Source of the DNA: Paraspadella gotoi
Taxonomy: Eukaryota; Animalia; Chaetognatha
Direction of reading: 5' to 3'
Length of the DNA: 64,000 nt
NCBI GenBank assembly: GCA_051294375.1
Contig: CM119269.1
Span: 11,816,809-11,880,808, forward strand
Below the pieces are notes generated by a model that searched no databases, had not been told where the DNA came from, and saw only the letters and a list, made by a program, of their open reading frames with translations. Positions 1 to 63,462 of this stretch are shown here, one piece after another (position 1 is the stretch's first letter; the number at the start of each line of letters is the position of its first letter). Position numbers and translations under genes: made by a program.

Positions 1-3000
1 ATTAGGGGAGAGGCACAGAGTTGAACAGAGGTTTTTTAGGGTTAGGGTTGGGAGAGGAGCCCGTAGGTGATGTTCATCCCCGTGTTAGCTGCGCTTTTTA
101 TAATATTCGCTACTTTTATCACTGGCGAGGTCGCCAGTGGAGGTACTGGCGACATCGCCAAAGCCCTTGCGATATCGCCATGGCGAAGTCGCCAACCAAC
201 TAGAACCACTTATTTTTTAATAATTTTTAAAAAAAAATTGTTATCAAACTTTGTAAATAGGTAATTTAAAACAAGTCTAACATAACTAAATAAAAAAATG
301 AAATTAGTATATTTAACACCTCCGTTTTAATTATATATATATTTAATTGTCTTTAACATCTATCAAAAAGGTAAAAATGTGATCGATTTTGATGGGGTTT
401 TTTTAACAGATAGAGTAGATGATAATTAACCCATCTAGGTTCAAATTGATTAATTTTAAGTTCTTAGCTGCGGAGGGGGTAAACAGGAGTGTTAAACATA
501 CCTAATTATTATTTTTATTTTAATCTTGTCAAGCTTGTTCTATTTAACCTATTTACAAAGTTTGATAATAATTAAAAAAATAGACGATTGTTTTTAACAT
601 CTATTTAAAAGCACAAAATATGATCCAATTTGATGGGATTTTTTTTAACAGATAGAACCGATGATAATATGACCCGTCCAGGAAGTTTGTTCAAATTGAT
701 TAATTTAAGCGCTTGGCTGCGTACATTATTGACGAGCAACTTCAACATCATGAAAAGGGGTGCTAAACGTTATAAATTATTTTTTACAGATTCTTGTTAA
801 GCCTGATTAAATGAACCTTCCTACCATGTTTTATAAAACTTTTTAAAAATAATTCAAAAGAAATCCTGATTTTCATATTTTTAAGAGACGAACTACTTCA
901 ACATCCTTTAAGAAGGTGAAGATATGCTCCGATTTCAAAAAAAAAAATTAAAAATTCTTTAAATATCATAAAGAATATACATATAAATTTTTATTCAATT
1001 CTATTGATAAATAAAAAAATGGCTGCACTTCATATGTTGACTAGACACTTCAATATCCTCAAATTACGTTGTTAAGAAGCTGTGTACCAAATTTTGTGCT
1101 GGTATCATAAAAATAACTATTCTTTTGCCTAACTTCCTTAAGGTCCGGGATCACTCAATTCAAATTATAATTAGGCAAACCGAGCTCGGATTCGAAAGGA
1201 GAGCTCCTGACGATTCCGAAAATGTATTACTTTACTATTATTTCAAAGGCGTTATCGTTTTTTTCGATTTTTTTTGTACATATAAAAATAAAAGAAACCT
1301 ATTTGAAGAGTTGCAGCCCAAACGGTAAGGCGGTTCTCATGAAATTTGGCATGGATTACTTTTAGGTGACGAACTCCAATTCTATGAAAAGATACTTTCA
1401 AAATTTGCCTTCCTTCATAGAAAATTCGATTATTTTAGTCAATTTTTGAGATAAATTCCTTGATATCTTTGAAACAAAAAAACATTTTTCCAAAAACGCG
1501 CTCATAGAATCTCCCCCACCTTTCCTTTCTTCTAGAAGAGTCCTATGGTTTGAGCTGCAACTCTTCGTTTTAACTTCACTTCGTCAAGAAAGTAAAATTC
1601 TGTACTCATTACTTTTGTAAGATTCACCACAACATACACAAGCACGGGATGTGATGATGGAGTTTGTTCAACGCCGATGTCTTAAAAAAATGGCTTACTG
1701 TTTTTAATTTTTTAATTCAGATTGGATTTTTTTTCAGANNNNNNNNNNNNNNNNNNNNNNNNNCAAACTTTGTAAATAGGTTAAATAGAACAAGCTTGAC
1801 AAGATTAAAATAAAAATAATAAAATTAGGTATGTTTAACACTCCTGTTTACCCCCTCCGCAGCTAAGAACTTAAAATTAATCAATTTGAACCTAGATGGG
1901 TTAATTATCATCTACTCTATCTGTTAAAAAAACCCCATCAAAATCGGATCACATTTTTACCTTTTTGATAGATGTTAAAGACAATTAAATATATATATAA
2001 TTAAAACCGGAGGTGTTAAATATACTAATTTCATTTTTTTATTTTAGTTATGTTAGACTTGTTTTAAATTACCTATTTACAAAGTTTGATAACAATTTTT
2101 TTTTAAAAATTATTAAAAAATAAGTGGTTCTAGTTGGTNNNNNNNNNNTCCCGGACCTTAAGGAAGTTAGGCAAAAGAATAGTTATTTTTATGATACCAG
2201 CACCAAATTTGGTACACAGCTTCTTAACAACGTAATTTGAGGATATTGAAGTGTCTAGTCAACATATGAAGTGCAGCCATTTTTTTATTTATCAATAGAA
2301 TTGAATAAAAATTTATATGTATATTCTTTATGATATTTAAAGAATTTTTAATTTTTTTTTTTGAAATCGGAGCATATCTTCACCTTCTTAAAGGATGTTG
2401 AAGTAGTTCGTCTCTTAAAAATATGAAAATCAGGATTTCTTTTGAATTATTTTTTAAAAGTTTATAAAACATGGTAGGAAGGTTCATTTAATCAGGCTTA
2501 ACAAGAATCTGTAAAAAATAATTTATAACGTTTAGCACCCCTCTTCATGATGTTGAAGTTGCTCGTCAATAATGTACGCAGCCAAGCGCTTAAAATTAAT
2601 CAATTTGAACAAACTTCCTGGACGGGTCAATTATCATCGGTTCTATCTGTTAAAAAAAATCCCATCAAAATTGGATCATATTTTGGCCTTTTAAATAGAT
2701 GTTAAAAACAATCGTCTAATTTTTTTAATTATTATCAAACTTTGTAAATAGGTTAAATAGAACAAGCTTGACAAGATTAAAATAAAAATAATAAAATTAG
2801 GTATGTTTAACACTCCTGTTTACCCCCTCCGCAGCTAAGAACTTAAAATTAATCAATTTGAACCTAGATGGGTTAATTATCATCTACTCTATCTGTTAAA
2901 AAAACCCCATCAAAATCGGATCACATTTTTACCTTTTTGATAGATGTTAAAGACAATTAAATATATATATAATTAAAACCGGAGGTGTTAAATATACTAA

Positions 3001-3307
3001 TTTCATTTTTTTATTTTAGTTATGTTAGACTTGTTTTAAATTACCTATTTACAAAGTTTGATAACAATTTTTTTTTAAAAATTATTAAAAAATAAGTGGT
3101 TCTAGTTGGTTGGCGACTTCGCCATGGCGATATCGCAAGGGCTTTGGCGATGTCGCCAGTACCTCCACTGGCGACCTCGCCAGTGATAAAAGTAGCGAAT
3201 ATTATAAAAAGCGCAGCTAACACGGGGATGAACATCACCTACGGGCTCCTCTCCCAACCCTAACCCTAAACCAAACCTCCTGTTCAACTCTGTGCCTCTC
3301 CCCTAAT
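1..3307. repeat. Large near-identical inverted duplication (1-1150 vs 2149-3307), plus a gap-bounded direct duplicate (1764-2138 = ~2736-3110)
   Basis: Mirror ORFs 67..264(+) and 3041..3238(-) encode identical peptides. The arms differ mainly by single-base indels, and the boundaries abut N gaps. Confidence 0.85.
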
Positions 3308-4220
3308 CCTAACCTTGGCCTCGGCCTTCCGTACATCTCCGTGTCTCAACCCTAATCCTAACCGCCTTCTATGCATCAACCACGGGCCCCACACTCAACC
3401 CTAAACCGAGCCTCCCGTTCAACTCTGTGCCTCTCCCCTAACCCTAACCCAGGCCTGGGCCTCCTGTACATCTCCGTGCCTCAACCCTAACCCTAACCGC
3501 CTTCGATGCATCAACCATGGGCCCCTCCCCCAACCCTAACCCAACTCCATGCCTCTCCGCTAACCCTAACCCAGGCCCGGCCTCCCGTACGTCTCGTACC
3601 TCAACCCTAACCCTAATCGCCTTGGATATATAACCCACGGGCCTCTCTCCCAACCCTAACCCTAAACCGGGCTCAGGCCTCCCGTACATCTCCGTGCCTC
3701 AACCCTAATGTCCTTTGTCAGTACCTTCCCTAAGCCTAACCCTAACGCGGGTCTCCTAGTCATCAACAATACCCTCCCGACCCCTATTCCTAAAATTGAC
3801 ATTAATATTAAGCCTAAAATAAACATAACTCAACCCTAACCCTAAACTACTCAACCCTAACCCTAATCTGAGTATTGTTTAGGCGAAATCGCCATAACTA
3901 GAATGCTAAATGTAGTTCACAGCTAAATCGCAAAATGACGAGGGGGTTACACAGAGGCTCGAATTAAAAGCACCACCCTGCAAAATTCCCTAACTCCTCA
4001 TTCACCCTGCCAATCAAATATACACAGAGGCTCAAATTATAAGCACCACCCTACTAAATTCCTAACTCCTCATTCGCCCTGCCTATCATGGTCATGGCTA
4101 AGTCGCAATTTGACAATTTAGCACTGAACTACATTTAGCATTATAGTTATGGCGATTTTGCCTAAACTAAACTCAGATTAGGGTTAGGGTTGAGATGGTT
4201 TAGGGTTAGGGTTGAGTTGG
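3240..4220. repeat. Telomere-motif (CCCTAA/TTAGGG)-containing satellite, with an inverted repeat ~3825-3935 / ~4100-4220
   Basis: AACCCTAACCCTAA recurs inside ~40-80 bp GC-rich units. ctcaaccctaaccctaatctgag...gctaaatgtagttca is mirrored by tgaactacatttagc...ctcagattagggttagggttgag. Confidence 0.75.
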
Positions 4221-4260: not shown

Positions 4261-4344
4261 ATTATCCCCCACCTGGGATTCGAACCTTCGAACTCAGGAC
4301 TGATCAGCATCGAGTTACAACTCTTTGCCAACCAGTCAGCCTGA
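4261..4344 (-). mobile_element. tRNA-derived SINE-like head or tRNA pseudogene
   Basis: The minus strand has a B-box GGTTCGAATCCC and a weak A-box (TGGTTGGCAAAG). There is no clean cloverleaf. Confidence 0.45.
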
Positions 4345-4981
4345 TTTTTCCCCTGATAAAATCGATTCTTATAACTTTAAATCAGATTTCGATGCCTTTT
4401 GTTTTCAACCAAAAGTAAGAGTTATGCTTTAAAACTGCAGATGGCTTGGCGCCTTTTAAATGATAGATTTAAACTCCAGTAAAAGGGGGGAAAGAAGGAG
4501 GGGAAAAGAGAGAAAGAAAAAGAAAGGAACAGAAGGGTATAAAGTTAGGGGAAGAAAGACTAAAAGAGATTAGGATAGAAAAAAGATTGGGGTTGATAAT
4601 AAAAAAGGAAAAAAAAACATTGAAAAAATGGAGAAAAGAGAGAGGGGGGAAAATATGGCGAGAAAGGGAGAGGAGTGGAATAAGAGAGGACAGGAAAAAA
4701 ATACTTTTCTTTCAAAAAATAAAAGATTTCCTAAAAAATAATAAAAAAATCGTATTTGAAAATTAACCGAATTTAGCCGTTAAAATAAATACATTAATGG
4801 TTAAGTTAAAATTATAATTAACCGTTTATAACCATTAACTTTTAACGGTTATCGGAACACTAAATATGACCAAGTTATGAAACTTTTTTTTAAAAAATTT
4901 AGGCCTATTTTTAAGTGGTTTACAATAATCCGATTTTGAATTTAAACCCAGTGGGCAATAGACCTACGTTTAGACTATTTT

Positions 4982-5310
4982 ATGAAATTGGTACAACCTA
5001 TATAAAAATTATCCATTCATTTAATAAATAAGCTATCTTGCCCCTGACTTTGGACAGGCTTTGGTGGTTTAAGGCCTCCATCACTTTTCCAAGATAATGA
5101 CATAGCAGGTCCCTGCAAGCTTTCAATCAAGACTTTCTCACAGTCTCGTTTATTCACTCCCAGAGTACCTGGCTTCCCTATCAATGAAGTGGAAAATATT
5201 TCAAAGAATGTTTCAATTGTATGAAAAGACCACTCCCTTAAGTATTAGATCGGAGAATACTTATTGTACTCCGCACTAGGATCAAAATACAAGGATCTGA
5301 ACTTTATGTT
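4982..5310. repeat. Dispersed ~330-bp repeat (other copies 7079-7410 and 7410-7580 in tandem, ~29870-30131 inverted, fragments near 55730 and 63440)
   Basis: All copies share gaaattggtacaacc...cttgcccctgactttggacaggctttggtggtttaaggcctccatcac. Confidence 0.85.
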
Positions 5311-5483: not shown

Positions 5484-17338
<11,855 letters not shown>

Positions 17339-18868: not shown

Positions 18869-25980
<7,112 letters not shown>

Positions 25981-26896: not shown

Positions 26897-29619
26897 TGTG
26901 GATAAGGCGCTACGTGGGCTGAAGATGACTGTCCGTAACTTCTATAACCCCCTCTCATGAGCCACCGGGTCACAACTGAAAGTGTCATGATTCTAGGCGG
27001 GGTGAACCTAGGCAATGCCCGACTACATGCCCCCCAGCAGAGATGTGGAAGCGATCGATTTTTCCGCCGCTGCCAATCCGGCGCTTCCAAGACCCCTCCC
27101 GCTCCCGTTTTCGGGTGCAATCCTTACTTTTTTAGCCCGGATCGCTTTCGGTTTCGAGTGCACATCGCTTCCTTCCTTTAAAAATTTTACATTTGACAGA
27201 TTTGTTATTATTTATAAAAATACTCTCTTTAGACATGTAATTCATTGGTAGAATAATTTTAAATAATCTTTTTTGTTAACAAATAACAAGTGAAATTTTT
27301 ACTATGAAAAATTGTAAGATTTGTAAGAATCGTTCAAGTGGAAATGAGTTTAAATGAAAAAAACAAAAAACCTATTTCCCTATTTGCTTTTTTCTTTTTT
27401 ATTAAATGTAAATACAAGCTGCATTAATTATTCAATTAATCAATTAATTGATCAATCAATCAATTAACTAAATAACTAATCAATCAAAATCACTTAAAAA
27501 ATTAATGAATCAAATCAATCAATTAATTAATCAATTAATTTATCAATAAACCAATTAATAAATTTATTTATCAATAAATTATTAAAAAAACTAATTAATT
27601 AATCAATCAATTAATCAATCAATTAAACAATATCAGTGTTATCATTGTCATCTCCAACGTTGTTGTTGCTGTTGTTGTTGTTGTCCTGGTCAGTGACCTG
27701 ACAAAAAGACCTAATATAACAGGCCTGATATGAATTTCTTTTATTTGATCAATCAATCATTCAATTAATCATGACGGTGTTATCCTCGTTGTCATCATAA
27801 TCATCATCATGGTCGTCATTTCTTTTGTCATAATGAAAAGATAAAAAAACAAACAAGTTTGAGCTAACAATGCCAGACCAGATCAGTAAATTAATTATGC
27901 AATCAATTAATCAAATATTCAATCAATCAATCAAAAAATTAAGCAATCAATCAATTTGTCATCGTCGGTGTTATTATTGTCGTAGTCGCCATCATTAATT
28001 ATTTAATTAATTAATTGAAATTTTTTTATAATGTTTGCGGTAACTCAAAACAAAAATTGATAGAAAAATTTCAGGCGTGTTTTTTGTAATAAAAAAAACT
28101 GGTATTATCAAAAACAGTAAAAAAGCAAATGATAAAAATAATAACAACAACTAGTATTTACATTGGCTGAGAAAAAGGTCAGCCATAACAAGATTGGGTA
28201 AGAACAGGTCATTCTTATTGACCACTACTGTACTACGGGTCACAAAGTACAAAGACTTCGTCGTCGTTTTCGTCATTGTATTCGTCGTCATTGTCGTCTT
28301 TGTTCAAATCATTTGAGCTCCCAAATGTTCGATATTATTTTTTTAATTAATCAATATGTAATTAATTAAATAATTTTTTTTTCAATTGATTAATTAATTA
28401 ATTATCGCTAATGATCGTGGGCAGATCCAGCATTGTTTGCTCAAACTTGTTTATTAATAATTTTGATTTAATTATTTTATATATATTTTTTTTATTTGCT
28501 TTTTTGTTCAGTACAAGAGGGAAAAAAGAAAGAAGATAGAGAGAGAGTGTGTGTGTTAGAGATTTAAGTATTTATAAGCATAATATTATGCAATATTGCC
28601 AATAAAACAGATCAATCCTTTTGGTTCAAACTTGTTTGTAACATGAAAAACGTTATGGATTTTAAAAAAAGTAGACTTAAATTTAAAAAAAAAAATACAA
28701 GAAATAAAATTTTTAGTTTTATAGAATTAAAAAGTTTAATTTAAATTTTAATTTAACTTAATTACAGTTTTTTTCAGATAGAAAAAATCTTTTGTTCAGC
28801 TCAGATTTTATTTCAATATATTAAAAAGAATAATTAAAAAAAATAAATATGTAATTTTTTTCATAGATTCTCGACCAAAGAGGAAGAGAGAATAAAAGAA
28901 AACAAAAAAATAAAGAAGAGAATAAGAAAAAGTGAATAAAAAAATTAGGAGCAAACAATTTTAAATGTTGAAAACAAATTTTTAAAAGAAAAATCAAGAA
29001 AGAGCAGGGGGTTGCAAAGATTTTAATACATTAAATACCTTTCAGTTCTAACCAATAAAAACAAATGACCAGGAAGCGAACACGCAGGTTATTATAGCTT
29101 CCGGGTTCAATCCTTTATTCTCAATTTTTCTATCCTTCCCGGTTTCGGGTTCTTCAAAAATCGGCCGCTTCCACAGTGTTCGGTTTCGCTTTCCGGATCG
29201 CGTCCACATCTCTGCCCCCCAGATTGTAACCCACCCTGCACTGCTTCCAGTGGAGGGAGGGGAGCAATCTTCAGCAAGACCAAGGGCCTGGAATCAGAAG
29301 GTTGGAATACGCTCGACAGGATGGGCTCACCAGTGTGGATAAGGCGCTACGTGGGCTGAAGATGACTGTCCGTAACTTCTATAACCCCCTCTAGCAGCCA
29401 TGGAACGGGTCCCTGGGCTTGGAACCAGGCTTGAGGGTTTGCCATGCCCCCAAGGCAGCTTACGGCCATCCTTACGCTTCCCGCAGGGTAGGTACTGGGT
29501 TGGGATTGAACCCGGTACCTAGTGGTCATGAGCTGATGGCTTTACTCAATGAGCCACCGGGTCACAACTGAAAGTGTTATGATTCTAGGCGGGGTGAACC
29601 TAGGCAATGCCCGACTACA
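26897..29619 (-). mobile_element. Family-A twister-bearing TRIM / LTR retrozyme: 5' LTR 29619-29334, internally deleted 3' LTR 27027-26897, ~121-bp native internal region, interrupted by a hAT MITE
   Basis: TG...CA LTR ends and AGCT TSD (26893-96 / 29620-23). PBS TGGTGAGCCC follows the 5' LTR, and a G-rich PPT (TGGGGGGCA) precedes the 3' LTR. Confidence 0.88.
27038..29214. mobile_element. Non-autonomous hAT element
   Basis: TIRs CAGAGATGTGGA(A)GCGATC / GATCGCGTCCACATCTCTG. The 8-bp TSD CCCCCCAG is at 27030-37 and 29215-22. Confidence 0.88.
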
Positions 29620-30967
29620 AGCTTAAAAATATAGTTTTTTATAATTTTAACTTACTTAATAACATAATTTTTGAAAAAGATTTATATTTTCTTTTAACAA
29701 CTTTTAACAAGGAATCTGAATCTGTTCTCAGAATTTAAAAAAAAACATTTTGAGATTTTGACATTATATAAGGGTAGTACTATATACAAAATAAGCTGAC
29801 TGGGCTACTATATTCATAAAAAAAGAAAAATAACTATAGATTAGTATTCACTAATATAAGGGAGTGGTCTTAAGGGAGTGGTCTTTTCATACAATTGAAA
29901 CATTCTTTGAAATATTATACCACTTCATTGATAGGGAAGCCAGGTTCACTGGGAGTGAATAAATAAGACTGTGAGAGAGTCTTGATTGAAAGCTTGCAGA
30001 AACCTGCTATGTTATTATCTTGTAAGTGTGATGGAGGCCTTAAACCACCAAAGCCTGTCCAAAGTCAGGGACAAGATAGCTTATTTATTAAATGAATGGA
30101 TCATTTTTATATTGGTTTTACCAATTTCATAATAGTTTTCAAGATATAACTGCTAAATATGGATTCCAAACTTTCACTTCACCCTACTAACCATAATCCC
30201 TTTTCCTAATCACTAATATAATCACTAGCTTAATCCCTAACCTAATCTTTAACCCGAATTTCGAACCCAAACTTAAAAAATTAACCTAATTCCGAATTTA
30301 AGATGGAATTGGGGTTCCGTTAACCGTTAATTTTTTAGGAATTTTGCTTAACCGTTAAAACTAACATTAACTGTTAAAATCGATAAATTTTATAATTTAA
30401 CTTTAGATTTAAGTGAAACGAAATTTTTTGAAACAACAATGTAATTTTATTTTAGAAAAAATTGGACATGTTTCGGCTCAGATTTCGGAACTTGTTTCAC
30501 GAAAATTTTGTTTCACTTAAATCTAAAACAACAAAAAGGCTTAACACAATGTCTAATTTAACTTTAAAATTTAAAATATTGTTATTCAAATCAAACTAAA
30601 GTATTTCATGGTATTTTATCTTTTACTCTTACTCCTGAATCTTCTTTATCTTCTATTTCAGATAGATTAGGTAATTTAGCTAATCAGATAATGCATACAA
30701 AACTTTTTTTTTTGCCTCATAGCTAGTCTGGCAAGCTTCCTATAGGACAGGTTGGAATATCTTTTCAAAACCATGGGAATATTACCTTGGTACCAAAATA
30801 AGAGATTTGAGATAGAACGATAGTTCGTAATAAAAATCGGGTTACTCCAATATGCAAATGAGATTAACATTTCACAGTAATATTCTAATTTGATAAAAAC
30901 TTATTAATATTATCTAAAAATTGGAAGACGTTTTTAATGTTTTTCTACAACGACTTTATTTGTAAAA

Positions 30968-31009
30968 AACGTACATATTTCGGCTTACATACAAGCCTTC
31001 TTCAGCGTT
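30968..31009 (-). ncRNA. Minimal hammerhead ribozyme (Penelope-type)
   Basis: Minus strand: AACG-CTGAAGA-A-GGCTT-GTATGT-AAGCC-GAAA-TATG-TA-CGTT. Confidence 0.7.
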
Positions 31010-31349
31010 AACAAATTATTTGTGAATTTTTAAATTGATTTGTTCAAATTCAAATTCAAATTCAAATTCAACATCAAATTCTACTTTATTGTATTTGTTT
31101 ACTGTCTGTTTATTCTGCATAATCTCCATCAATTATCGTTATCTCCTCGTGTGTTTAATGTTAATAAAACTTCTCTAACTTCTCCTCAATTTTACCACGC
31201 CTACTTCCTTCAATGACAGTTAAAATAAATATATTAACGGTTAGGTTAAAATTATTTTTAACCGTTAATAACCGTTAACTGTTATCGGTTATCGTAACCC
31301 TAGATGGAATAGGGCGTCCTGAGAAAATAAGGCCTATAAAGGATATATT

Positions 31350-33504
31350 TGCCTTTGACGAGTAACTGTAGGATAGGGAGGCGTCTTGTAGCTTCCGACG
31401 CTGTCTGATTGATTGAGTTTCATTCTTAACTTCGAACGACCAAAGTGAACTGAAGCCAAAAGAAATATTTTTTATTTTACATCAGTTACATTATATGATT
31501 TATTTACATTGGATAGTGGATACCTTATTATTACCATTTTAAGCTAAAAAAAACATAAGTTTTAAAAATGATCTACACTCAGAAATTTGATAAAAATCAC
31601 TAATGATTCTTTTAAGTAATTATTAAGATTACTATCATATCATTTTTATAATTGATATTATTTTTAATTTTCATTATTAGTATTAATAATGTTATTGAGA
31701 TTAACTTACCTGCTCGACGAGTCGTCCTTTTCGAAAAATTCGAGGTCCCACTGAATTTTTTTGTTCTTGTCAAAAAATGGATTTTCTTGGGAGTCTGAGA
31801 AGATTTGAGCAAACAATGACTGAGTTGCAATGAGACATTGAGTTTTCGCCAATTCTTACCGACTTTCATGGACGCGCGTGAATATTTTTTTTTTCCCGTT
31901 GATGACTCTCGACTGATTTCAAGTCAGAGAATCAACCATTAGGCAATTTTCAGTATACAATACATAGATTTATAAAGTTAATATATTCTGTCTTATTCCG
32001 TTTTTTGTTTTGTTTTTTTTTTTCAATCGAACTGACCTTTGTTTTGTTTTTTTTTCAATCGAACTGACCTTTGTTTTTCCGAAATTAATTCATAATCGAC
32101 GACGTCTTTGAATGAGATCGATTTTTTCAAACCTGATATGGTGGACTAAAACTGATTAATTTTCAAATAATTTATTGCGGGGCCCGAAAAAAAAAGAATC
32201 TTATACATAATGAAGTAACTTTTTTCAATTTGTGTAGGTGTCCATTTACCATACTCGTTCAAAATTTCTGACGAGTCTTTTTAAAAAATATTTATCAAAT
32301 ACAAATTCAATGTGTTACTTTTTCGTTTCCCTTTTCCTTTTCCCCAATTTGTATTCGTGACTCGATCAAGTTCTTCCTCTTTCGTCGATTCGTCCAAACT
32401 AGAAAAGCGAAAGAATGAACAAAAGGCTTATTTAGGTACAAATACAATACAATGATAATATAATGACGTTTAAAAAAAAATAATAATAATAATAATAATA
32501 CGTAATAATGTAAAAATTAAACTAAAGACCTTTAACGAAAATTATTTTATGATGCAACATAAAATATAAAATAATTTTCGTTAAATCTCAAACACAACGA
32601 AATAAAAGGATAATATCGAACAAACTAAAGACCTTAAATTAAACTGATCGGGATAAGTTTCTCGATTCAACGACGGGGTGCCCCTTTGACTCTCTCTCGC
32701 TCTTGCTCTTGCCGCCGCCACATCCTTCGCCCAAATCGCGATTCGCTCTCGATCGTAGACTGGGAGAAAAGGAAGGATCTCATATATATATATAATTTTT
32801 TATATATATATATATATATATATTCACATCCTTCGCCCAAATCGCGATTCGCTCTCGATCGTAGACTGGGAGAAAAGGTAGGATCTCATATATATATATA
32901 ATTATATATATATATATATATATANNNNNNNNNNTTTCTATGTCTCACCTTTCTCCGCCTTTCCTGCTCCCACTCCCTCTGGCGACACCGACCCTCTCGC
33001 CAACGATGACCTCCCTTCATTTCCGCGGAGAGGCCCGTCCTCCAGCAGCCCGTTTTCCAATGGCTCGTCCAGGGGCTCCGCATCGTCCACGAGACGTCGC
33101 TTCCCGAGTGAATCCACATCCGGTTCCAGAAATTCAGAAAAACTCGATAATTTGTCTTCGCTTCCGTTAATGTCGTCGTCGTCGTCGTCCACATTTCCCG
33201 CGCCATCATTGTTGTTGTTGTTGTTGTTGTAGCCTCGCCGAGTCGAGTCTCTCCTACTCCTTCCACCATTGTGGGCGTGGTCCTTATTTTCGAAGCCCCC
33301 GTCGTTGTTGTTGTTGTAATTCTTTCTACGCCCTTCCACAAGTTGACGACCGAGTTGGCGGAGGTTGGGCCTTGTCGAGGAGGTCTCCCCGTAGAGGCTC
33401 AACATCGTCTTCAGCTTCGCCATCTTCACCATCTGCGAGGGACTTCGGAAGTCCAGCATCTCGGCCAGACGGTTGATCTCCTCCAGCCTGTTCTTCCGCG
33501 CCAT
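31350..33504 (-). CDS. Uncharacterised low-complexity protein; probably the 5' part of the SHIPPO-repeat gene
   Basis: ATG at 33504, then phase-compatible exons 33504-32949, 32759-32633, 32398-32319, 32132-32069, 31912-31860, 31794-31710, 31449-~31350. Exon 1 has strong GC3 bias. No domain was recognised. Confidence 0.6.
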
Positions 33505-34027
33505 TGAGTTGGTCCTCGTCGTCGTCGTCGCAGTCGTCTTTAACGAAGTTCGTTAAAAACGTTCGGATTTGCTAATTCGCTTCATTATTACGGAAAAGTT
33601 CTTGAGAATAGTAGGATGGCGTTTTATCGTGCTATAAAATTATTAATATACATACAGAGTTAGATTTATACTTATGTTAAAACTCCATTTTTACTTTTAG
33701 ATTTTCCAAAGGATATTTAAAAATGCGGCGGCACTTCGATTGAACAATATTGACAGCATTAATTCCTTTTATGCCCGAACTTTCATTACCGTATTTTCTT
33801 TTATATACCGTATCGTTTATCATTCGTGCTTTTTTAACTTTAGTATTACATCTGATAATCATTTCTTTTCGTTGTTGTTTAATATTTAGAGAAAACAAAG
33901 CGTTTTTGAATTTATGACAACGATTTATTTTAATAGACGGACATCTTTTGACTCTTTGGGTTCAAGTCTTCATCAGCATTTGAAATTCACAAACTTTTCA
34001 GTTCTTTTCATTGACTTTGGAGAGAGA

Positions 34028-34313
34028 TGTGGATAAGGCGCTACGTGGGCTGAAGATGACTGTCCGTAACTTCTATAACCCCCTCTAGCAGCCATGGAAC
34101 GGGTCCCTGGGCTTGGAACCAGGCTTGAGGGTTTGCCATGCCCCCAAGGCGGCTTACGGCCGTCCTCACGCTTCTCGCAGGGTAGGTACCGAGTTGGGAT
34201 TGAACCTGGTACCTAGTGGTCATGAGCTGATGGCTTTACTCAATGAGCCACCGGGTCACAACTGAAAGTGTCATGATTCTAGGCGGGGTGAACCTAGGCA
34301 ATGCCCGACTACA
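34028..34313 (-). mobile_element. Family-A solo LTR (286 bp) inserted into the Penelope pLTR
   Basis: TGTAGTCGGG...CCACA with GAGA TSD. The insertion is absent from the sister pLTR at ~36060. Confidence 0.9.
34099..34178 (-). ncRNA. Twister ribozyme, P5-type permutation (best family-A copy)
   Basis: GCGAG-AA-GCGT-GA-GGA-CGGCCG-TAA-GCC-GC-[CTTGGGGG..CCCTCAAG]-CCTGG-TTCCAAGC-CCAGG-GA-CCCGT. T1 is UCC:GGA and T2 is GC:GC. Predicted cut between 34156 and 34155. Confidence 0.8.
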
Positions 34314-46445: not shown

Positions 46446-47727
46446 ATGCGAAGGATCAAGATCGAAATCCTCCGACCGATCTCCTCCTCTTCCTCCTACG
46501 CTCTTCCTCTTCCTCCTCCTCCTCCTTCTCATCCCTCGACGTCTCGCCTCGGAGGCGCCGAGGCGACGATTCGGCGCCTTGTCCTCTTCCTCTTCCTCCT
46601 CCACTCCCTCTCCAGCCTCTCGGACGATCCCCCACCACCCTTCCCCGCGAGTCCCCTCCGATCCTCTTCCCCAATCCCCTCACTCTCTCTCCTCTCCACC
46701 GTCGTTACCTCATCTTCCTTCAAGCGTCTCGCTCTCCTCGAAACTCTCTCTCCCCGACGCCTCGAGCTTTTCCTCCAGCAACGAACCACACCTCCAATCG
46801 GCTCGTCGACGGCGTCAGGGTCTTCGTCGTCCGAAGCGAAGACGTCGACGGAAAAATGAGAAGCGAAAAACTTCGAAACGACGACAGCATTCGCCGCAGC
46901 ATCCGCAGGAGCCGCTTCGTCGATCTCCGCTGCAACAGCTTCCGCCGCCGCGACGCCGCCTCGGCTCTCCTCCGCAGCAGCAGCTGCCGCGCCTGCCGCT
47001 GCCGTCGCACCGTCTTCCGATTCTTCCGCTGGCGGAGAGACCCGATCCTTCGTTAGATCCGCCGCCAGAGGCGCTTCGATCCACGTCGTCGCTATTACAG
47101 ACGCTCGGCGCCGAGAATTTCCGGCCGCGGCTGATGTCGGTAACTGATCCGCGTTCTGGACCCGAGGGCGGAATCGTCATCGGCGGCGGCGGCGGCGGCG
47201 GCGGTGAAATTCCGCGGGATTTTCGACGGAAATTCACCGACTTTTTCGACGGCGGGAAAAACTTTGACAAGAAACGAAAACAAAAGATGAAGGAAAAACA
47301 AGAGAGAAAACAACTCGATAAACAAGAGAAAAAACAAAACGAAGCGGAGGAGAAGAGAGGAAGACAAAAGTCGTCGTCGTCACGTCGACTTCGCCGGAAA
47401 TTAATGCGTCTCCTATGGCGTCGAACTCAATGTCGCGTCCGATACGCGTGGCGCGATCTCGGCGCACGATTTTGGCCGCGTTACGTACGTGAGGGATCGT
47501 GCTCCGCGACCGAGACTTGCTCCTTTCCCGCCGGGATGCGCTGCGCTCCTTCCGTACAGTCTCGCATCACTCTGCTGCGATATTACTGCGGGACGAAGCG
47601 ATGGGGGCGTGCCGAAGTGGGACGTGGAACGACGACGATGACGACGACGACAACGACGATAAGGAGTTGTCGGTGGATCGTCGTTCATTATCCCATCGTC
47701 ACTGGATGCGCCTGCGGGTGTCAGTGA
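46446..47727 (+). CDS. nog: Noggin (BMP antagonist family); main coding exon, start codon unresolved
   Basis: Clip region PLPSHRLPILPLAERPDPSLDP...LLQTLG...FRPRLMS, a basic segment, and a cystine-knot C-terminus CRVRYAWRDLGARFWPRYVREGSC...CSFPAGMRC...C...CRW..YPIVTGCACGC with all nine cysteines. A splice acceptor follows (CT)n at 46445. Confidence 0.95.
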
Positions 47728-53699: not shown

Positions 53700-54975
53700 T
53701 ATACCACGATATATATACCGCTTCTTTTATTACTCCTGAACATTTAATTTATGCGTGCCCTAAATTATTAATTCATATTCACATGTTATTTAACAGTTTA
53801 ATTCAACACGGCTGTTTGTTCAGACTTTTTAGATGGACTAATTATTCCAATAGTGAAGGATTACAGTGGTGATCTTTGTACAGTCTCTAATTACCGATGA
53901 ATAACTCTGTCATCAGTTTTTAGTCAATTGTTTGAGCACTGTCTCTTGTTAAAATTTGGGCATAATCTTTTTTCAGATGACTTGCAATTTGGTTATAAAT
54001 ATAAGAAATCTCATTCTACTTCTCATGCAATGTTCACTCTACGGACCTGCATAGATTATTTTCATGTTCATGGTTCGGGTGTTTGCAGTACATTCATGGA
54101 TTGTAGCAATGGTTTTGACAAAGTGAATCATTATAGTATTTTTACTAAGCTTATAGATCGTGCCATTATGTTTCTTAAAAATCTTGGTATACTGGTATAG
54201 CAATTTAAAGTAATTTAAAGTAATTTTAAGTAAATGTAGATGGAAAAGTACCATTAGTGATTCATTTGTAATGTCTTCTGGCGTACGCCAAGGAGGAGTC
54301 CTCAGTCCATACTTATGGGCAGTATATGTCAACGATTTAATTTTGGAACTAAAAAAATCAGTTTATGGTTGTTACATAGGACATGCATATTTTATGAAGA
54401 CGATATAGCATTACTTTCACCAACGATAAGAGGTATGCAAGTCTTAATTGACATTTGTGCAAAATATGCAAAGGATTTATGTTTTACATTTAGTTTCAAA
54501 AAAACGAAAGTCATGTATTTTGGTAAGTGGCAAACTACAATTCCAAATGATATACTTTTTCTTGATGGTAACAGTATCGATCTAGTTGATAAATGGACAT
54601 ATCTAGGGTTCAACCTTAGTAGTGAAAGAGACAGCTTGTTTGAGCCAAGCAAAGAATTGGTATCTTTTTTTGATAAATGCCTTGTTAAAGCCTTCAGAGG
54701 AATTATTGATGAAATTGTTTTATACTAACTTTGTTCCGGTTGTCCTTTATGGCTGTGAAGTAAAAACTTTTTCGGTACATAATGTAGCTGTAAATGATGG
54801 TGTCCGAAAGATTTTTGAATATAATCGATGGGAAAGTGTGAGATAACTTAGGAATATGTTTGGATACCACGACCTGTCTACAATTTTTAATAATCGTAAG
54901 AAAACCTTTATCTCAAAGATCTACACAATGAAAAATACTGTTCTTCAGAAACTTGTTCCATTTTTTACAACATAA
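53700..54975 (+). pseudogene. Decayed non-LTR retrotransposon reverse transcriptase
   Basis: Across shifting frames: IIPIVK, QFGYK...STSHA, FMDCSNGFDKVNH, SGVRQGGVLSP, YEDDIALLSP, TYLG. Confidence 0.85.
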
Positions 54976-55578: not shown

Positions 55579-63247
<7,669 letters not shown>

Positions 63248-63462
63248 GTGAGAACCTCAGACTTTGTTGACGACATGATCACTGAAATTAAAGCTTTCAA
63301 TGATCTTGTTACAGCTGCCGCAATCACTATTTTATTGAAATTAAGTTTCAGTTTGATCGTGATTAATATTATATTAAGTGCCATCAATAGAAATAGTTGA
63401 CCTCCTGTAAGTTTTTCATAATATTAAAATTCATTTAATATCTTGCCCCTGACTTTGGACAG

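Follow-up and report, generated by a model that had tools for sequence, protein, structure and literature searches.

Candidate animal LTR retrozymes with a predicted twister ribozyme in the genome of Paraspadella gotoi

Plant long terminal repeat (LTR) retrozymes (Cervera et al. 2016, PMC4918200) are non-coding elements with a ribozyme in each LTR, a primer-binding site (PBS), a polypurine tract (PPT) and duplications of the target site (TSDs) that span 4 bp; solo LTRs occur, the predicted unit RNA has no R repeat, and a Gypsy element is presumed to serve as helper. In a stretch of 64,000 nt from Paraspadella gotoi (contig CM119269.1, positions 11,816,809 to 11,880,808; hereafter the window, to which all element counts refer unless contigs of sequencing runs are named) we describe two families of short elements, A and B, which resemble the plant elements in all these respects. 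They differ from them in their animal host, in a predicted type-P5 twister in place of the type III hammerhead, in a unit of 407-431 nt versus about 600-1000 nt, in a Trp-like instead of a Met PBS and in an internal tRNA-like promoter; moreover, circles have been demonstrated for the plant retrozymes (PMC4918200), whereas those of A and B are predicted from sequence. The animal non-LTR retrozymes (PMC7229834) are arranged in tandem, carry type I hammerheads and have no LTR, PBS or PPT, and metazoan retrozymes at large are stated to lack these three features (PMC7229834, PMC7761336). A and B possess all three and therefore stand outside this group. Insect elements with type III hammerheads are mentioned as unpublished (PMC7761336), and a 2026 preprint (bioRxiv 10.64898/2026.07.22.740005) places LTR retrozymes primarily in plants, the word "twister" being absent from its accessible part. 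Schistosome SINE-like hammerhead repeats (SINE, short interspersed nuclear element; PMC6765202) share with A and B a promoter of RNA polymerase III (Pol III) upstream of the ribozyme, and the twister variants of Perere-3 (PMC8501958) share the tie of twisters to retrotransposition; unlike A and B, however, both are non-LTR elements with no PBS, PPT or 4-bp TSD.

A resemblance of another kind exists to Helenus/TRIMp3 (PMC10886601), miniature retrotransposons with terminal repeats (TRIMs) of less than 1 kb which have a PBS, a PPT and, in animals, 4-bp TSDs and are defined by a tRNA-derived LTR segment with the motifs TRGCY (present in A) and GGTTC. Transcription by Pol III is itself a presumption for Helenus, and no self-priming by the tRNA-like part was found in Helenus families (PMC10886601). 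Helenus-2_SyJa additionally shares the tRNA-Trp PBS. A and B differ from Helenus by 125-155 nt which follow the tRNA part and contain the twister, and by the absence of a run of four T (T4). The accessible main text of PMC10886601 reports no ribozyme for Helenus ("twister" is absent, "hammerhead" occurs just in the references), and in the LTRs of its supplement no twister is seen by eye or with short search terms. A type III-like hammerhead core, recognised by eye and not by computation, follows the tRNA part in the consensus LTRs of the gall-wasp families Helenus-2_SyJa and Helenus-2_SyUm of the same supplement, both of which have a tRNA-Trp PBS. In listings and passages from the open full-text literature, which does not extend to subscription papers, Repbase and part of the supplements, we found no description of LTR elements that carry twisters, of LTR retrozymes in animals or of natural twisters that act as dimers.

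Architecture of families A and B

Family A consists of non-coding LTR elements, dispersed and present in high copy, with a 286-nt LTR, 4-bp TSDs, a PBS and a PPT. A self-comparison of the window reveals three full LTRs, one deleted LTR and one fragment, which are arranged as follows:

26897-29619, minus strand: full-length family A element, TSD AGCT, in the order LTR (29619-29334), PBS, internal region, PPT, LTR (27027-26897)
29334-29619, minus strand: 5' LTR of this element, its ribozyme having A at the general-base position (29473)
29323-29332, minus strand: PBS, TGGTGAGCCC, identical in A and B and one base off a published tRNA-Trp PBS
29223-29333, minus strand: 111 of the 121 nt of the internal region, delimited by sequence and run contigs
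27038-29214, no strand assigned: DNA-transposon insert of 2177 nt, non-coding, with terminal inverted repeats starting with CAG and an 8-bp TSD, CCCCCCAG, inserted at the PPT
27028-27037, minus strand: PPT and final 10 nt of the internal region, delimited by sequence
26897-27027, minus strand: 3' LTR with an internal deletion of ~155 nt, ribozyme and box B gone
34028-34313, minus strand: solo LTR of 286 nt, TG...CA, TSD GAGA; the sole A copy with every conserved twister base
61789-62072, plus strand: diverged solo LTR with a degenerate ribozyme, TSD TATT
25630-25675, minus strand: 46-nt fragment of an A LTR end, found by self-comparison

An earlier note on this DNA had placed the three full LTRs at 29334-29619, 34028-34313 and 61789-62072, and both self-comparison and TSDs confirm these coordinates. 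The first two are 97% identical, the third, on the opposite strand, is 88-90% identical to them, and an empty site corresponding to the 34028-34313 insertion lies at about 36060. The insert within the full-length element contains no open reading frame (ORF) of at least 100 aa; from its CAG-starting termini and 8-bp TSD we take it to be hAT-like. Its 8-bp target site is the PPT of the A element, which has thereby been duplicated. Without the insert the internal region measures 121 nt, the period 407 nt and the element 693 nt, as the earlier note had calculated (~121 bp and a ~407-nt monomer), and the uninterrupted joint (29619 to 29213, 407 nt back) is actually seen in contigs of three of the four sequencing runs X1, X4, X9 and X10 (six contigs in X1, six in X4, one in X9; unlisted in X10). 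Since one of its ribozymes is mutated, the other deleted and its PPT interrupted, the element at 26897-29619 is itself probably dead.

The window holds two elements of family B with a size of 651-664 nt:

62082-62732, plus strand: full family B element, LTRs 62082-62315 and 62499-62732, TSD GTAT, PBS from 62317, PPT about 62485-62496, period 417 nt
58673-59336, minus strand: full family B element, TSD AGAG, cut-to-cut period 431 nt

These periods reproduce the monomer of 417-431 nt given previously. The B LTRs start with TA, not TG. In the predicted fold of a B unit the 3' end of the LTR pairs with its complement near the end of the internal region, by which the PBS is enclosed (62305-62470). 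Contigs of run X1, of which 19,201 and 6,469 were aligned to two stretches, have loose ends concentrated at the exact LTR termini of both families, 73 at 29334 and 86 at 29619 for A, 124 at 62082 and 137 at 62315 for B, with a flank agreement of about 0.4 in either case. Loose ends at exact LTR termini with unrelated flanks identify A and B as dispersed high-copy mobile families; contig depth, however, is not copy number, and variant percentages given below are shares of depth. X9, tentatively taken for RNA, behaves like the DNA runs and carries no information on expression; X10, X11 and X12 contribute small shares, and X10 and X11, with 12 and 4 matching contigs, were left aside for questions of host and habitat. 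Where both ends of an insertion are present, a 4-bp TSD is found in five of five cases, A and B taken together. The A solo LTR and the B element at 61775-62755 lie 9 nt apart in a short TATATTAG-like repeat, and other A and B copies reside in GA repeats or other repeats, which hints at a common target preference.

Directly upstream of the ribozyme, and overlooked by the earlier note, both LTRs contain a tRNA-like segment which is predicted to act as a Pol III promoter:

34185-34257, minus strand: tRNA-like segment of the A LTR, box A TGGCT starting at 34250, box B GGTTCAATCCC at 34206-34196, 44 nt apart
62532-62604, plus strand: tRNA-shaped stretch of 73 nt in the B LTR, present a second time at 62115-62187; ARAGORN score 88.1, reached by 0 of 1000 shuffles

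The 44 nt from box A to box B, found in all three A copies, are the spacing of a tRNA, and five of the seven box-B matches of the window fall inside A or B LTRs, on the ribozyme strand. At its default threshold ARAGORN reports no tRNA in the window; relaxed thresholds give many false calls, for which reason scores were judged against shuffles. As to the Helenus/TRIMp3 boxes, TRGCY and GGTTC occur in all three A copies with an inexact YGG, while B shows the 73-nt cloverleaf, GGTTC in two of four copies and no exact TRGCY. The PBS of B agrees in 13 of 14 bases with the published tRNA-Trp PBS of Gypsy-32_NVi and Helenus-2_SyJa. Like Helenus/TRIMp3 elements, A and B are non-coding, stay below about 1 kb and have two LTRs, a PBS, a PPT and a 4-bp TSD. 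A ribozyme in both LTRs together with PBS, PPT and 4-bp TSD, as present in the B elements and as indicated for A by the 407-nt period, is the arrangement of LTR retrozymes, the motif being a twister where the latter have a type III hammerhead. Judged from sequence, A and B thus appear to belong to Helenus/TRIMp3 by the features tested and to work like LTR retrozymes, apart from the hammerhead.

The description of A and B as "sequence-unrelated" in the earlier note turns out to be overstated. A comparison by blastn finds no similarity between them, yet their best local alignment lies above chance (1-2 of 300 shuffles score as high), being weak and collinear. The similarity is limited to the ribozyme together with the tRNA-like segment (score reached by 14 of 500 shuffles); for the LTR ends and the internal regions it does not, or hardly, exceed chance (scores reached by 191, 298 and 37 of 500 shuffles). 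In addition, A and B have in common the identical 10-nt PBS, the module order and the LTR layout. Given the common layout and PBS, we rejected independent origin as the default assumption; A and B probably diverged from a common stock and were not invented separately. Descent from one ancestor with deep divergence is the simpler account, and it supports selection on the fold rather than its repeated invention.

The predicted twister and its conservation

The motif which follows the tRNA-like segment is located in the two families as follows:

34100-34177, minus strand: predicted type-P5 twister of A, with 34156/34155 as its predicted cut site and the palindromic P1 hexamer at 34162-34157
62606-62681, plus strand: predicted type-P5 twister of B, with 62630/62631 as its predicted cut site

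The predicted cut, U^AA, falls at LTR nt 158 in A and at nt 132 in B. As in twister type P5 (Rfam RF02684), the molecule is circularly permuted with its 5' and 3' ends in P5, and the U^AA site, the GA loop, L4, the pseudoknots T1 and T2 as well as the stems P2 and P4 are present. Deviating from RF02684, P2 has 3 bp and a bulge where the Rfam type has 4 bp, the 6-nt palindrome that forms P1 leaves no space for a regular loop, and scores stay below the gathering threshold. In favour of the motif, published tests show that twisters tolerate bulged stems and the loss of P1, but not damage to a pseudoknot or to the catalytic G (PMC11662667, PMC5408937). The pairings read by the earlier note are confirmed for T1 (UCC:GGA in A, CCG:CGG in B), P4 (CCUGG/CCAGG and CCUGA/UCAGG, respectively), the bulged P2 and the 8-nt L4 of both families. 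Its claim that P3 and P5 differ entirely but pair is inexact: the first two pairs of P3 are common to A and B, and P5 of the 34028 copy contains one mismatch. Comparison of this copy with the B copy at 62499 across 13 core pairs reveals four pairs changed on both sides, none changed on one side and none broken, in agreement with the compensatory changes proposed earlier. That eight changed sites fall as four whole pairs has a probability of 4.6e-4, a figure calculated post hoc. In the 11 twister copies of the window the T1 (3 bp) and T2 (2 bp) pseudoknots are paired in 100% of cells by three different T1 and two different T2 solutions, three T1 cells in degenerate B copies being G-U.

The 34028 copy contains the conserved U^AA, the general-base G, the following A and the L4 bases U..AA-GC without exception. 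The copy at 29334 has A in place of the general-base G, and that at 61789 shows UAG at the cleavage loop, an A-to-C change in L4 and a P4 mismatch; these defects are private changes of the two copies, as the run-wide family majority is intact where listed. The general-base G accounts for 97-99.6% of depth in X1, X4 and X9. In X1, UAA and the L4 A each reach 99%, the two together with the P4 pair 97-99%, and the T1 bases of B 95-97%. The most variable core position listed is the P2 bulge (11-29%), and a variant of 4-22% converts a G-U into an A-U pair. Among the within-family variants listed no compensatory pair is found, for which reason R-scape would have little power on a single family.

A family-agnostic type-P5 descriptor, applied in a strict and a lax form, identifies five sites in the window (A accounts for one, B for two, and a third family, C, described below, for another two), all of them with a 3-bp bulged P2 and a P1 linker of 6-7 nt. 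The strict form gives 4 hits in 150 shuffled windows, the lax form 4 in 20, and of 5000 shuffled LTRs of each of A and B not one passes. A covariance model built from the four B copies alone yields 17 matches at E<=5 and recovers the three full A copies without exception, at E 2.4e-4 to 3.9e-3, as well as all four C copies (E 1.6e-5 to 0.1); the remaining matches are the four training copies, four antisense B self-matches and two unrelated sites (E 0.2 and 4.5). An alignment of the 11 copies is paired in 94% of cells, with a two-sided change in 14 of 24 pairs (29 of 500 shuffles as high) and a covariation score of 0.506 compared with 0.200 for shuffled and 0.02-0.09 for slid alignments. This count comes from three lineages and is too high, owing to a shifted register in the 4-bp P4 of C and to the arbitrary way in which P3 is aligned. 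The search for Rfam hits in A and B returned no hammerhead. The best B ribozyme copy folds with a z-score of -2.2 and the B units with -3.6 and -1.9, 53-63% of the bases of A and B units being paired (25 shuffles each).

A selected twister ribozyme carried by a whole class of elements is the best reading of this motif, with further support from majority bases across the runs that agree with the conserved twister positions, from the recovery of A and C by the B-only model and from hits of Rfam Twister-P5 to A and C below threshold. To that extent the inference drawn from covariation in the earlier note stands, while two or three lineages cannot give covariation of the grade required by R-scape.

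Possible modes of transposition

Any explanation has to account for the LTR-PBS-internal region-PPT-LTR structure, the 4-bp TSDs, the many dispersed insertions, the spacing of boxes A and B and a twister motif with compensatory changes. We consider it probable that A and B are animal LTR retrozymes which use a twister instead of a hammerhead and transpose via circular RNA. Pol III transcription would start where the 5' LTR has its tRNA-like segment and run through the whole element, whose ribozyme strand contains no T4 run in either family. By cutting U^AA in each LTR, the twister would set free a unit, 407 nt long in A and 417-431 nt in B, that ends in a 5'-OH and a cyclic phosphate and lacks the R repeat; a host ligase would close this unit into a circle. 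With tRNA-Trp annealed to the PBS, an autonomous Gypsy element would supply the reverse transcriptase and the integrase that copy and insert it. Plant retrozymes provide a precedent for the cutting, circle and priming/copying steps (PMC4918200).

A number of observations weigh against this reading. Conserved twister bases are lost in two of the three full A copies, no element of the window has two intact ribozymes, and just 5 of 11 copies satisfy the strict descriptor. Rfam gives no hit in the window at its gathering threshold (37.6 for Twister-P5, RF02684); below threshold, A reaches 17.3 bits and C 25.6-25.8 bits, and for B no Rfam Twister hit appears at E<=10. In B, an A-U pair occupies the top of P4, where twisters show a nearly invariant G-C. 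Listed run-wide variants break T2 (29456, 1.6-11%) and P2 (29475, 0.6-11%), both at CpG sites and with no listed change of the partner. As antisense B self-matches score like A, the B-only covariance model is by itself a modest test. The minimum-energy structure of the isolated 80-nt A ribozyme is not the twister (z -0.23, pseudoknots lying outside the fold model), and the circular A unit, 63% paired, is no more stable than shuffles (z -0.64), so that folding gives no independent support for A; in two of three A and B units the antisense strand folds as well or better. The tRNA shape of the A segment is weak (ARAGORN 74.6, 42 of 1000 shuffles as high), the absence of T4 runs says little, given that 13-42% of shuffles lack them too, and among the window ORFs scanned there is no autonomous Gypsy partner, just reverse-transcriptase/endonuclease fragments and a Noggin-domain ORF.

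Unlikely, though deserving more weight than the explanations treated after it, is the notion that an active twister merely trims linear RNA, setting the ends of Pol III read-through transcripts or cutting one LTR, while the elements move by ordinary TRIM retrotransposition with terminal repeat and strand transfer and without a circle. The circular A unit is indeed not unusually structured, twisters in Perere-3 and other non-LTR elements have been tied to end processing (PMC8501958), and most of the published Helenus LTRs inspected end soon after the tRNA part, many with the T run that is absent here, so that the ribozyme could replace a terminator. Yet the same ribozyme is present in both LTRs, and cutting both would remove the R repeat needed for strand transfer, an argument already made for plant retrozymes (PMC4918200); a tandem LTR-LTR joint (62315 to 62081) in three X1 contigs furthermore fits multimeric copying, other explanations of it being available. 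We regard it as improbable that the block of tRNA and twister is a relic of a SINE-like or tandem retrozyme which inserted into an ancestral LTR and whose ribozyme is no longer needed. Insertion of a SINE is the origin proposed for Helenus (PMC10886601), in the SINE-like repeats of schistosomes a hammerhead is combined with a Pol III promoter (PMC6765202), the same genome contains family C as a tandem non-LTR twister repeat, and the strict descriptor rejects 6 of 11 window copies. Between A and B, however, LTR ends and internal regions no longer show detectable similarity, and still all eight core differences are compensatory; the run-wide majority is intact in each family, and decay of single copies after insertion is to be expected. 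That the pattern reflects a mere chance match of GC-rich hairpins within a repeat is very improbable indeed. Sub-threshold Rfam scores, the lack of a folding z-score in favour of A and a structure picked after viewing the sequences would fit such a match, whereas the failure of all 5000 shuffled LTRs of either family to pass the descriptor, the occurrence of the same subtype in three families of one window, each on one strand only, and of a similar subtype in a separate repeat of metagenome contigs do not.

Returning to the favoured LTR retrozymes with a circular intermediate, the P1 linker deserves attention as it is self-complementary in three families (CGGCCG, GGCGCU, AGGCCU), a property found in some 2-6% of hexamers rich in GC. 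In the Rfam alignment it forms three pairs around a loop of zero bases; as a monomer it would form one pair plus a tetraloop, as a dimer 6 bp. From one family to another the two central bases change from GC to CG, a difference that has consequences only when two molecules pair. For a swapped dimer with a common 6-bp P1 the calculated energy is 12-16 kcal/mol lower than for two monomers in the twister fold whose P1 is open, but the global minimum of the dimer is another fold and not the ribozyme (pseudoknots again being outside the fold model), which counts against the favoured reading. The hammerhead of the axolotl, which has one pair and a palindromic tetraloop, is better at cutting in dimeric form (PMC7229834). 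The palindromic 6-nt P1 of all three families suggests cleavage as a dimer; as P1 is dispensable in other twisters (PMC5408937), we treat the dimer as a conjecture. It is possible, but at less than even chance, that the palindrome pairs the two LTR ribozymes and that cutting is efficient only with both LTRs on one transcript. Slightly more doubtful still is the comprehensive proposal of an unrecognised class of animal Pol III-driven LTR retrozymes with an interchangeable ribozyme (twister here, hammerhead in wasp Helenus-2), in which natural "double twisters" with a palindromic P1 would restrict cutting to full-length transcripts and spare solo LTRs and the circle.

If the favoured reading is true, A and B break both rules of the papers cited, that animal retrozymes are devoid of LTR, PBS and PPT and that LTR retrozymes are tied to plants and hammerheads. 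Retrozymes and Helenus/TRIMp3, so far described separately, would be joined, and eukaryotic twisters would have a definite part to play in LTR retrotransposition and in the making of circular RNA. A natural dimer-gated twister, if real, would be new RNA biochemistry and useful for ribozyme-based RNA circularisation. A 78-nt construct makes sharp predictions regarding cut site, T1 rescue and monomer versus dimer.

Family C and further features of the window

The third family, which the earlier note missed along with the palindromic P1 and the degeneracy of two A copies, contributes the following twister copies:

30019-30075, plus strand: twister of family C, of the subtype seen in A and B, located in a separate repeat; further copies on the minus strand at 5037-5095, 7141-7197 and 7465-7520

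Its T1 is CCA:UGG and its T2 AC:GU. The repeat itself occupies 4977-5308, 7073-7584 and 29858-30132, with a fragment at 63439-63462, and has a tandem unit of about 331 nt. It contains T4 runs, no box B and, by eye, no PBS. In layout it resembles the animal non-LTR retrozymes, and from its sequence it looks like one of them with a twister instead of the hammerhead.

Outside the window, a twister-fragment pattern matches 15 loci in viral contigs, none of which passes the full descriptor, and at least 120 loci in metagenome contigs, three passing among the matches listed; by blastn none of the 135 viral and metagenome loci listed resembles the window. Several AT-rich metagenome contigs (L031, L043, L051, L091, L115, L127 and L128; also L070 and L124) share a dispersed repeat of ~340 nt with a P5 twister. 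This repeat exhibits the 3-bp bulged P2 seen in the window and a palindrome just before the cut site, while its sequence shows no resemblance to the window.

The window as a whole is AT-rich eukaryotic DNA with microsatellites, fragments of reverse transcriptase and endonuclease, and a Noggin-domain ORF. The latter (46579-47727, plus strand) is intronless, its three nearest matches being 31-34% identical. Broken endonuclease/reverse-transcriptase frames (Pfam PF14529, PF00078) are present at 11453-13857 (minus strand), resembling a long interspersed nuclear element, and at 54315-54728 (plus strand). Two extra box-B matches outside families A and B, at 4286 (minus strand) and 35057 (plus strand), are possibly heads of SINEs. 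Finally, positions 1-3700 contain nested inverted and direct repeats of 140-315 nt beside CCCTAA-rich tandem repeats, which resemble a subtelomeric or foldback structure.

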